This document shows, in pieces, positions 26,053 through 27,390 of a stretch of 64,000 nt of DNA. The position numbers were made by a program, and so were the translations under genes. The stretch lies in contig CAKRZX010000011.1 of assembly GCA_934434555.1 (NCBI GenBank), positions 3,620 through 67,619 of the forward strand, read 5' to 3'. The notes beneath the pieces are model-generated. The model had not been told where the DNA came from and ran no database searches. It saw only the letters and a program-made list of their open reading frames with translations. This stretch comes from an uncultured Clostridia bacterium (lineage in GTDB: Bacteria > Bacillota > Clostridia > Christensenellales > QALW01). The first letter of the stretch is position 1. Each line of letters opens with the position of its first letter.

Positions 26053-27390
26053 ATGAACACACTAAAAAGCAAAAAATCGATCATACTTTACGGCTGCTCG
26101 GCAATGGGCGTGAATCTGCTTAACCTGTTTATGGGTTCCTATCTTTGCAGCGCGCTGCTTGTGGGCGGATTCGGCGAAGCGGCGATACCGTTTCAGACTT
26201 TTAAGCAAAAAGACCTTGTTATAGCGGGCGTTTGGGCAGTTTTTGTCCTGATTGCGAAAATTGTCGACGGCGTTGTCGATATTCCCATGGCGGCGTTTAC
26301 CGATAAACTCAAAAGCCGTTTCGGGCGCAGGCGTCCGTCCATAATTATGGGAATGATTCCTATGATACTTTCCTTTATAGCCTTTACGGCGTATACACCC
26401 GTTGACGGCGTATCAATGACTAACACGGTTTACTACGGGGTGCTTCTGTGCATATTCTATTCGTCCTACACCCTAACCATGGTAACCTATTATGCAACGT
26501 TTACCGAAATAATCGATAACGAACAGGACCGCACGTTTCTTTCAAATGTAAAGTCGGTATGTGATATCGTTTATTTCATTATCGGCTACGTGGCTGTAAG
26601 CGCACTGCTTAAAGGCATAAATATCCGCATCGTTGCGCTTATTCTGCTTCCTCTTGTGCTTACAATGCTTATTCCTCTGTTTATGATTAAGGAAAAATCA
26701 ACTCTCGGCGACGAAAAACTTGATTTCGAAACCGTAAACCTGGGAAAATCCTTGCTTTATACACTGAAAAATAAGGATTTCATCATCTGGATGCTTGTAT
26801 ATTCTTTTATGACTTTCGGCGTGCAGTTGTTTTTGGGCGGAATAAACGAATACTTCTCGTTTACAAAAATGAGCATGATTCTCGTTATGGTTGCGGCGTT
26901 TGCGCCTGTGCCGTTTACGCTTATGATTTATAACAAACTCATTCGCAAAAAGGGCTTCCGCTTTGCGTTCCAGTACGTTTTACTTGTGTTTTCAGCATCA
27001 ATGCTTACGCTTTTCGGAATTTCGTTCATTCCGGCGGGCACATTAAATACGGTGCTTTCAATTGCGGGCGGGCTTATTGCATCTCTTGGTATAGGTGCAC
27101 TGTTTGCGGTGGCGTATTCAATACCCTCTCAACTTGCCGCAGACGATGAAAAGCGCACCGGAATATCCCATTCGGCGATGTATTTTGCCGTTCAGGGACT
27201 GTTTTCCGGCGTTGCAACGGGACTGGGCGCGGGCGTGGTGCTTACTGCGCTTAAAGGTTCTGAAAGTGCCGGTTCTGACGCGATTATTTATCTTACGGCG
27301 ATATCGGCGCTGGGATGCCTTATCGCCTATACGCTTACATTCATATTGCCCGCTTCAATAAAGAATTTAGGTAAAACGGAAAAGCAGTAA
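26053..27390 (+). CDS. GPH-family (MFS_2) cation-coupled transporter, substrate unknown
   Basis: 445 aa, about 12 TM helices; ..DGVVDIPMAAFTDKLKSRFGRRRP.. is the loop 2-3 signature of the glycoside-pentoside-hexuronide family. Confidence 0.8.
   Translation: MNTLKSKKSIILYGCSAMGVNLLNLFMGSYLCSALLVGGFGEAAIPFQTFKQKDLVIAGVWAVFVLIAKIVDGVVDIPMAAFTDKLKSRFGRRRPSIIMGMIPMILSFIAFTAYTPVDGVSMTNTVYYGVLLCIFYSSYTLTMVTYYATFTEIIDNEQDRTFLSNVKSVCDIVYFIIGYVAVSALLKGINIRIVALILLPLVLTMLIPLFMIKEKSTLGDEKLDFETVNLGKSLLYTLKNKDFIIWMLVYSFMTFGVQLFLGGINEYFSFTKMSMILVMVAAFAPVPFTLMIYNKLIRKKGFRFAFQYVLLVFSASMLTLFGISFIPAGTLNTVLSIAGGLIASLGIGALFAVAYSIPSQLAADDEKRTGISHSAMYFAVQGLFSGVATGLGAGVVLTALKGSESAGSDAIIYLTAISALGCLIAYTLTFILPASIKNLGKTEKQ

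Follow-up and report, generated by a model that had tools for sequence, protein, structure and literature searches.

The stretch of DNA analyzed here raises the question of what a protein of the glycoside-pentoside-hexuronide (GPH) type transports when its gene lies among genes for lipid rather than sugar metabolism. The window, i.e. the whole 64,000-nucleotide stretch (positions 3,620 to 67,619 of contig CAKRZX010000011.1, from an uncultured Clostridia bacterium), carries such a gene at 26053..27390 (+), inside an operon of acyl-handling enzymes. From the fold, family placement, residue pattern and gene linkage of the protein, we infer a substrate, an inward direction and ion coupling: the cargo of the protein is most likely a lipid, for instance a lysolipid, and not a sugar, and, at a rough probability of 40%, the protein would be a cation-coupled lysolipid importer or flippase feeding reacylation.

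The open reading frame (ORF) starts with ATG, is preceded by GGAG and encodes 445 aa. Its best Pfam match is MFS_2 (PF13347; residues 13–402, 96.8 bits against a cut-off of 27, E = 1.4e-27), with just 37.7 bits to MFS_1, and its AlphaFold2 (AF2) model (pLDDT 84.9, pTM 0.84) has 12 long transmembrane (TM) helices arranged in the 12-TM MFS fold. At E≤1e-5 the only NCBIfam matches were gph, YagG and PRK11462, all far under their cut-offs; TIGR00792 (gph), the model for canonical GPH:cation symporters, gave 46.5 bits against a cut-off of 231.35, and intermediate bacterial relatives score 98–221 bits on it. Neither Pfam nor NCBIfam returned a match to LplT-type models. By these scores the protein is a peripheral GPH member, belonging to a divergent MFS_2/GPH clade. 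More than 1,650 homologues were found, the named ones annotated just as 'MFS transporter' and coming from metagenome-assembled Clostridia genomes of gut and rumen, and 13 contigs on record carry an exact copy. Since these homologues and copies are joined by the AF2 model and by synteny in 80 loci, 26053..27390 is a real gene rather than a chance ORF. The family is small and distinct, with 67 clusters at E≤1e-30 in an exhaustive search of representatives.

The sequence-only reading had placed the protein in GPH/MFS_2 from a motif in the loop between TM2 and TM3, and this motif is exact (D76-IPMAAFT-D84-K85-LK-S88-R89-F-G91-R92-R93-R94-P95, nt 26278–26337). Read from the translation and from alignments to MelB and MFSD2A, the pattern begins earlier, at 26266..26337 (+), with the TM2 pair D72-x3-D76, which corresponds to the cation-site aspartates D55/D59 of MelB, and runs into the loop motif D84-K-LKSRF-GRRRP. 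Conservation of D72, D76, D84 and G91 reaches 90% or more in alignment A1, whose 23 members also make up the family profile used below. The window protein resembles MelB and the canonical GPH proteins (TIGR00792) in its 12-TM MFS fold and in its cation site, with D55, D59 and T121 of MelB kept as D72, D76 and T140; the basic residue R52 is kept as K69, and N58 is changed to V75. It differs in the sugar ligands. Not conserved are D124 (M143), W128 (Y147), R149 (S168), N244/N248/N251 (T254/Q258/L261) and K377 (G386, aligned with K436 of MFSD2A), and D19 presumably corresponds to N21, in an alignment of TM1 made by eye. Retention of the sugar-coordinating residues of MelB had been named beforehand as a sign against a lipid substrate; those that can be aligned are not retained, and the objection does not arise. 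At the TM11 position of K377, MelB, MFSD2A and 13/13 generic GPH proteins carry Lys or Arg, whereas all 17 family members aligned have Gly, Ala, Ser or Gln; judging from this alignment, the missing TM11 lysine is a signature of the family. In the loop between TM10 and TM11, 'ADIxDxDE' of generic GPH proteins is replaced by 'PSQLAAxE'.

MFSD2A (SLC59A1), the Na+-dependent lysophosphatidylcholine (LPC) symporter/flippase of vertebrates, shares the Pfam family MFS_2 with the window protein. The two are alike in the cation site, made up of D-x3-D and a Thr, and in a pair of one basic and one acidic residue in TM5 (residue roles from PMC10013850). Within the Na+-site set of MFSD2A, D93, D97 and T159 (T154 in PMC10013850) are matched by D72, D76 and T140, whereas the essential K436 corresponds to G386 and to Gly, Ala, Ser or Gln across the family, and E312 and N314 are unmatched. 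The TM5 pair K167-x3-D171 aligns with R-x3-E of MFSD2A and is absent in generic bacterial GPH proteins; in MFSD2A itself, LPC transport is lost when that arginine is replaced (R186A as numbered in PMC10013850).

Likeness to MFSD2A is also seen in searches of the PDB. With the single transporter sequence, phmmer gave no PDB match at E≤1, and the family profile alone reached MFSD2A and MelB: chicken MFSD2A (7mjs) scored 53 bits (E = 1.8e-13), human and mouse MFSD2A 44–45 bits, zebrafish MFSD2A 38 bits and MelB 32 bits (E = 4e-7). Foldseek with the AF2 model likewise placed MFSD2A first (8d2t, 7mjs and 8d2s; E about 7e-11, TM-scores 0.73–0.75) and MelB second (8t60; E = 4e-9, TM-score 0.75). This ranking is weak evidence of kinship with MFSD2A, as MFSD2A heads both lists partly because few GPH structures exist and because the model and its top matches are all inward-open. 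The identity of the window protein is about 15% to MFSD2A and 14% to MelB. In a rough neighbor-joining tree of p-distances (34 sequences, 431 columns, 100 bootstraps), the transporter family is monophyletic (84% bootstrap) and forms its own clade, with MFSD2A falling weakly with MelB and the canonical GPH proteins.

The genomic setting is that of lipid metabolism. The transporter gene starts 11 bp after DegV/FakB (25112–26041) and ends 2 bp before FakA (27393–29012), in the position between DegV and the Dak2 kinase subunit that had been described, and both the PF13347 match and the domains of the neighbors agree with the proposal of a GPH/MFS_2 protein in a lipid operon rather than a sugar locus. 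The operon (19261–32707) consists of 15 same-strand genes separated by overlaps or by gaps of at most 18 bp, and every one is acyl-handling or encodes a small membrane protein, which counts in favor of a lipid substrate. As the sequence-only reading had stated, there is no glycosidase nearby: the ORFs scanned with Pfam between 9.3 and 38.7 kb, three of which had no Pfam match and from which two ORFs of 124–140 aa were left out, include no glycoside hydrolase.

The first gene of the operon, 19261..21171 (+), encodes a fatty-acyl-AMP ligase with a C-terminal PP-binding carrier domain (PF00501, PF00550), here termed AMPACP, which we propose to be the acyl-ACP (ACP, acyl carrier protein) synthetase half of a split Aas. 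It is followed by two PlsC-type acyltransferases. AT1, 21168..21788 (+) (PF01553), has an intact HX4D motif (H47-TSVY-D52), and its profile matches PlsC of Thermotoga maritima (5kym) at E = 1.3e-10, this solved PlsC being the sole PDB match of the acyltransferases. AT2, 21778..22389 (+) (PF01553, 87 bits; motif HVGFFD), is 29% identical to AT1 and scores 70 and 32 bits on the Aas-type acyl-[ACP]--phospholipid O-acyltransferase models PRK08633 and PRK08043, below the cut-offs of 1221 and 886; the proteins cover only one domain of these equivalog models. The hallmarks of Aas are nevertheless present, namely HX4D acyltransferases and a protein joining AMP-binding and PP-binding domains. The next genes encode a second adenylate-forming fatty-acid ligase, FadD-like, at 22370..23908 (+) (PF00501, 218 bits; NCBIfam long-chain-fatty-acid ligase models below cut-offs), a stand-alone ACP of 82 aa at 23921..24169 (+) (PF00550), and ABH1 at 24169..25110 (+), an alpha/beta hydrolase (PF12146, PF00561) with one N-terminal TM anchor by hydropathy.

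The two genes flanking the transporter pass the NCBIfam cut-offs for DegV and YloV: DegV/FakB, the fatty-acid-binding subunit at 25112..26041 (+), scores 188 bits on PF02645 and 203.4 bits on TIGR00762 (cut-off 99.7), and FakA, the fatty-acid kinase catalytic subunit at 27393..29012 (+), has the domains Dak2, FakA-like_M and FakA-like_C and scores 494.7 bits on TIGR03599 (YloV; cut-off 396.1). On the Staphylococcus-type equivalog models FakA_VfrB and FakB1, FakA and FakB of the window fall under the cut-offs. Downstream are ABH2, 29009..29947 (+), an alpha/beta hydrolase (PF12146) with one N-terminal TM segment by hydropathy; a CE4 'polysaccharide deacetylase' with DUF3473 (PF01522, PF11959) at 29944..30786 (+), a variable member of the cluster; and ABH3, 30770..31828 (+), a third alpha/beta hydrolase (PF12146), which has a positively charged N-terminus followed by a TM/signal segment in the hydropathy profile and is probably extracytoplasmic. 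The operon ends with two tandem genes (31829–32293 and 32312–32707, +) for small membrane proteins with Zn-ribbon and DUF4190 domains in Pfam and 41% mutual identity; Zn-ribbon proteins also flank distant relatives of the transporter (L082, L086, L087). The locus is closed by a convergent uvrC. A GDPD-like gene, 18337..19089 (+), lies 171 bp upstream of the operon and matches PF03009 over its N-terminal half only (profile positions 5–108 of 244); it fits a lysolipid salvage route, and no GDPD match was found beside the cluster in related loci.

The linkage extends well beyond the window. Among 176 stretches encoding a relative in a species-representative genome collection, the best 80 were compared, the denominators below being the loci with enough flank for each neighbor. 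The orthologues in these loci, at 57–69% identity, keep the same neighbors, and the transporter is linked to lipid genes in 80/80. DegV is directly upstream in 75/77 and FakA directly downstream in 72/72 (including L065, with FakA 52 bases after the transporter and a second FakA copy present); ABH2 is kept in 63/63, AT1 plus AT2 in 58/59, AMPACP in 53/53 and the FadD-like ligase in 45/53. The relatives come from Clostridia of human, ruminant, horse, rabbit and other guts. In 56/80 loci the product of an extra gene between ACP and ABH1 (e.g. L002:7122–8132) joins a 4'-phosphopantetheinyl transferase (PPTase) to an LRAT/PLAAT-like thiol acyltransferase domain; this gene is absent from the whole 64-kb window, in which the stop codon of ACP and the start codon of ABH1 overlap at base 24169. 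Locus L065 carries, about 7 kb from the cluster (18669–20500, −), a second, divergent DegV/FakA pair (29% and 38% identity), so that FakA and FakB of the cluster are extra, dedicated paralogues, at least in that genome.

The linkage is also seen in distant relatives. We inspected the contigs of seven family members sharing 26–34% identity with the window protein, and an acyl-AMP ligase/ACP fusion and/or PlsC-type acyltransferases adjoin the transporter gene in six. The arrangements are AMPACP-MFS-AT-AT for P0144, AMPACP-MFS for P0142, and an MFS::CE4-deacetylase fusion followed by an AMP ligase and two acyltransferases for P0166; P0171 and P0169 are each followed by an acyltransferase, P0146 is followed by an AT1-like acyltransferase and oriented divergently from an AMPACP-like gene, and P0163 is without lipid context. 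At the level of loci, an AMPACP-type gene stands beside distant MFS_2 relatives in L081, L086, L087 and L089, and two-gene MFS_2-acyltransferase units occur in L081 and L085. The minimal conserved unit is the transporter, the ligase-ACP and one or more PlsC-type acyltransferases.

The P0166 protein (L089:430–3138) is 902 aa long and combines MFS_2, about three extra hydrophobic segments and a CE4 domain with DUF3473, the same domains as in the window gene 29944–30786. This fusion functionally links transporter and deacetylase, and owing to the extra segments the CE4 domain may lie outside the membrane. Among the long transporter relatives, no fusion to an acyltransferase and one to CE4 were found; several of them (P0131, P0138, P0145) carry fused C-terminal Zn-ribbon/DUF4234-like membrane modules.

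We suggest that the transporter carries its substrate, a lysophospholipid or perhaps a lyso-glycolipid, to the inner leaflet from the outer one or from the medium, with the retained Asp-Asp-Thr site serving Na+ or H+ coupling. The substrate would be freed from dietary, host or own lipids by membrane-anchored or secreted hydrolases, ABH3 being a candidate for producing lysolipids or fatty acids outside the cell. At the inner leaflet, AT1 and AT2 would re-acylate the lysolipid with acyl groups that AMPACP, as well as the FadD-like ligase together with its ACP, would load; in an alternative route, the lysolipid would be deacylated by the alpha/beta hydrolases and the fatty acid captured as acyl-phosphate by FakB/FakA. 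A membrane-embedded lyso-acceptor is favored because of the two-gene transporter-acyltransferase units and the PlsC type of the acyltransferases.

In its logic, the operon would be the Gram-positive counterpart of LplT plus Aas, using a different MFS branch and a split Aas. LplT is an energy-independent facilitator; by contrast, the window transporter keeps the cation-site Asp pair. LplT/Aas flips lysophospholipid inward for reacylation and is described in PMC11416262 as ubiquitous in Gram-negative organisms. The two systems are alike in linking an MFS transporter, an adenylate-forming ligase with a carrier protein and an HX4D acyltransferase, a linkage that here persists down to 26–34% transporter identity, and the analogy is one of function, not of transporter homology: LplT is an MFS_1-type flippase, whereas the window transporter is of the MFS_2/GPH type. 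Aas joins a PlsC-type acyltransferase to an acyl-ACP synthetase, and MFS-AT-AAS fusions exist (NCBIfam PRK08633/PRK06814); in the window the corresponding genes are separate, the ligase carries a fused ACP and the acyltransferases number two. For a split Aas there is a precedent, the neighboring genes CT775 (lysophospholipid acyltransferase) and CT776 (AasC acyl-ACP synthetase) of Chlamydia trachomatis, which put scavenged fatty acids into lysophospholipids (PMC5693948). Further differences from LplT/Aas are the Gram-positive-type Clostridium host and the additional FakA/FakB, three hydrolases and CE4 enzyme. The CT775/CT776 pair is not known to include a dedicated MFS_2 transporter, FakAB or hydrolase genes. 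The classification that we consider safest is an LplT/Aas-like arrangement that combines a split Aas with a transporter of the GPH type and lies within a larger operon for fatty-acid salvage.

Whether the transporter is a fixed part of the cluster was addressed by a scan of metagenome contigs that was independent of it, anchored on AT1 (alignment A2) and covering 36 loci in which AT1 is followed by 6.5 kb or more. A member of the transporter family was present in 27 of these loci, 25 having it in the DegV-MFS-FakA position and three (L110, L118, L165) in the order AMPACP-MFS-AT1-AT2, with L165 belonging to both groups. Of the nine loci without it, five represent a cluster variant from which the FadD-like ligase is missing too, two (L101, L144) are complete clusters with DegV directly next to FakA, and two end after the LRAT gene. 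In L165 (metagenome contig WFLX010392552.1) there are two transporter paralogues, the DegV-MFS-FakA copy being 45% and the AMPACP-MFS-AT1 copy 34% identical to the window protein, which hints at two substrate specificities.

Several observations weigh against a lysolipid importer. i) The transporter is missing from 7/34 otherwise intact clusters, and no consistent candidate for a substitute transporter was found in the clusters without the gene. Absence from otherwise conserved operons had been set as a mark against the proposal, and it weighs in part: with the gene kept in 27/34 and missing in 7/34, the transporter is a frequent but dispensable member of the cluster. ii) MelB D124 is missing from generic GPH proteins too; its loss therefore says little, and comparison of the sugar ligands discriminates only weakly. 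iii) The TM11 lysine needed by both MelB and MFSD2A is absent, and coupling may therefore differ. iv) The family is not the sister of MFSD2A in the rough tree, and generic bacterial GPH proteins score 120–220 bits on the family profile as against 36–50 for MFSD2A. v) Two acyltransferases and two or three fatty-acid activating systems exceed what reacylation of a lysolipid needs; the surplus enzymes would also fit double acylation of an imported polar backbone or the biosynthesis of an exported acyl-lipid. vi) The PPTase and LRAT-like domain of related clusters have the flavor of a biosynthetic cluster. The proposal of a lysolipid importer analogous to LplT but from another MFS branch thus comes through in part: the ligase/ACP and PlsC-type genes beside relatives at 26–34% identity speak for it, substrate and direction remain matters of interpretation, and the gene is not obligatory. 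The specific kinship with MFSD2A has to be given up, given the separate clade in the tree and the closeness of generic GPH proteins; since the family stands apart, any lipid transport in it, if true, arose independently of MFSD2A.

The rival that survives best, although we regard it as unlikely, is an exporter or outward flippase, moving an acylated lipid or metabolite that a biosynthetic cluster makes from scavenged fatty acids. The two adenylating enzymes and two carrier proteins, together with the PPTase-LRAT fusion of the related loci, are in keeping with such a product, and the three or so extra hydrophobic segments in P0166 could put its CE4 domain outside the cell. Bacterial GPH-type proteins, on the other hand, are typically importing cation symporters. 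The arrangement also resembles the non-ribosomal peptide synthetase-like fatty-acid-amide pathways of gut Clostridia, with a free-standing A domain, an ACP and a C domain (PMC13310621), and the MFS_2 family includes the sphingosine-1-phosphate exporter MFSD2B (PMC5862976); however, Pfam found no condensation domain, glycosyltransferase or head-group-forming enzyme among the operon genes of the window. FakA/FakB are known from fatty-acid scavenging (PMC10848957), the hydrolases would fit salvage as well, and the two-gene units of L081 and L085 fit import and acylation of an acceptor better. The published Clostridial fatty-acid-amide pathway itself (OaaA/OaaACP/OaaC) was considered as a counterpart and rejected, as its condensation domain has no equivalent in the operon by Pfam and the extra gene of the relatives is LRAT plus PPTase.

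Less probable than export, in our judgment, is import of a polar acyl acceptor, such as glycerophosphocholine (GPC), another glycerophosphodiester or the glycosyl-glycerol of plant galactolipids and sulfolipids, to be acylated twice by AT1 and AT2 into a diacyl membrane lipid. GPH members carry glycosides, including glycosyl-glycerols, which together with the GPH ancestry of the transporter speaks for this reading; the two acyltransferases and two acyl-carrier loading systems would fit acylation at sn-1 and sn-2, and the window has the GDPD-like gene just upstream. Streptococci, moreover, build phosphatidylcholine from scavenged GPC or lysoPC (PMC6805115). Against it, the sugar ligands and TM11 lysine of canonical GPH proteins are lost, PlsC-type enzymes (the closest solved relative being PlsC 5kym) normally use membrane-embedded lyso-acceptors, the GDPD gene is not conserved beside the cluster, and the units with a single acyltransferase (L081, L085) would give just a lysolipid.

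Somewhat more doubtful again is an importer of free long-chain fatty acids, delivering them to FakB/FakA and the acyl-AMP ligases by vectorial activation. The gene lies exactly between fakB and fakA or, in the second arrangement, right after the acyl-AMP ligase, and free fatty acids are used by all three activation systems of the operon. However, protonated fatty acids cross bilayers unaided and FakB presumably draws them out of the membrane, we know of no MFS fatty-acid importer in bacteria, and DegV-FakA is intact in the transporter-less clusters L101 and L144. An ordinary sugar or glycoside symporter that is in the operon by chance, as the Pfam family name 'MFS/sugar transport protein' and the weak matches to gph, YagG and PRK11462 might suggest, is very improbable in view of NCBIfam scores far under the cut-offs (46.5 vs 231), MelB sugar ligands that are not conserved, a linkage to lipid genes in 80/80 orthologue loci and 6/7 distant relatives, and ORFs that, where scanned over the surrounding 29 kb or so, include no glycosidase or sugar kinase.

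Some further features of the window may be recorded. Consensus scans for promoters and terminators gave counts not above those of shuffled sequence (30 vs 27.4 and 29 vs 23.1) and were therefore not used for the operon boundaries, and Rfam and tRNA scans found nothing near the locus; a tRNA-Tyr at 54244–54328 (−) is the sole RNA gene found in the window. Tandem genes of the metallo-beta-lactamase fold (15630–16421 and 16433–17242, +) precede the operon by a few kb. Outside the operon, past uvrC and an ArsR-type regulator, lies another CE4 polysaccharide deacetylase (35148–35894, +; PF01522, 130 bits), with the stronger match of the two. In a protein of the SSB family (220 aa; 36026–36688, +), the SSB domain does not begin until residue 105, so that either the N-terminus has an unusual extension of some 100 aa or the start was called wrongly. 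Over positions 1–64000, GC skew is positive in nearly all 2-kb bins, the cumulative skew rises monotonically and the long ORFs are mostly on the + strand, consistent with the whole window being on the leading strand of one replichore.

A literature search found no description of this cluster or of a bacterial MFS_2/GPH lipid transporter, and to our knowledge no lysophospholipid transporter is known for Gram-positive-type bacteria. Taken as a whole, and with slightly less assurance than the lysolipid importer by itself, the operon could be a dedicated machine for lipid salvage in Clostridia of gut and rumen: a cation-coupled lysolipid flippase of GPH origin, with lipid transport acquired independently of MFSD2A, would feed a split Aas, membrane-anchored lipases and a private FakA/FakB. 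If so, it would be the first LplT/Aas-type system outside the Gram-negatives and contain the first bacterial MFS_2/GPH lipid transporter, and the transporter would offer a small bacterial model of MFSD2A-like lysolipid flipping in a natural variant without the TM11 lysine. If the protein were instead an exporter, the operon would be a cluster for lipid biosynthesis, uncharacterized and very common in the gut microbiome. A salvage machine of the kind proposed, if confirmed, could account for the making of membranes from dietary or host lysolipids and fatty acids in these anaerobes, and the cluster, being widespread, would bear on the use of such lipids by abundant gut anaerobes, on a possible bypass of their own fatty-acid synthesis and on their resistance to phospholipase or bile-type membrane damage.

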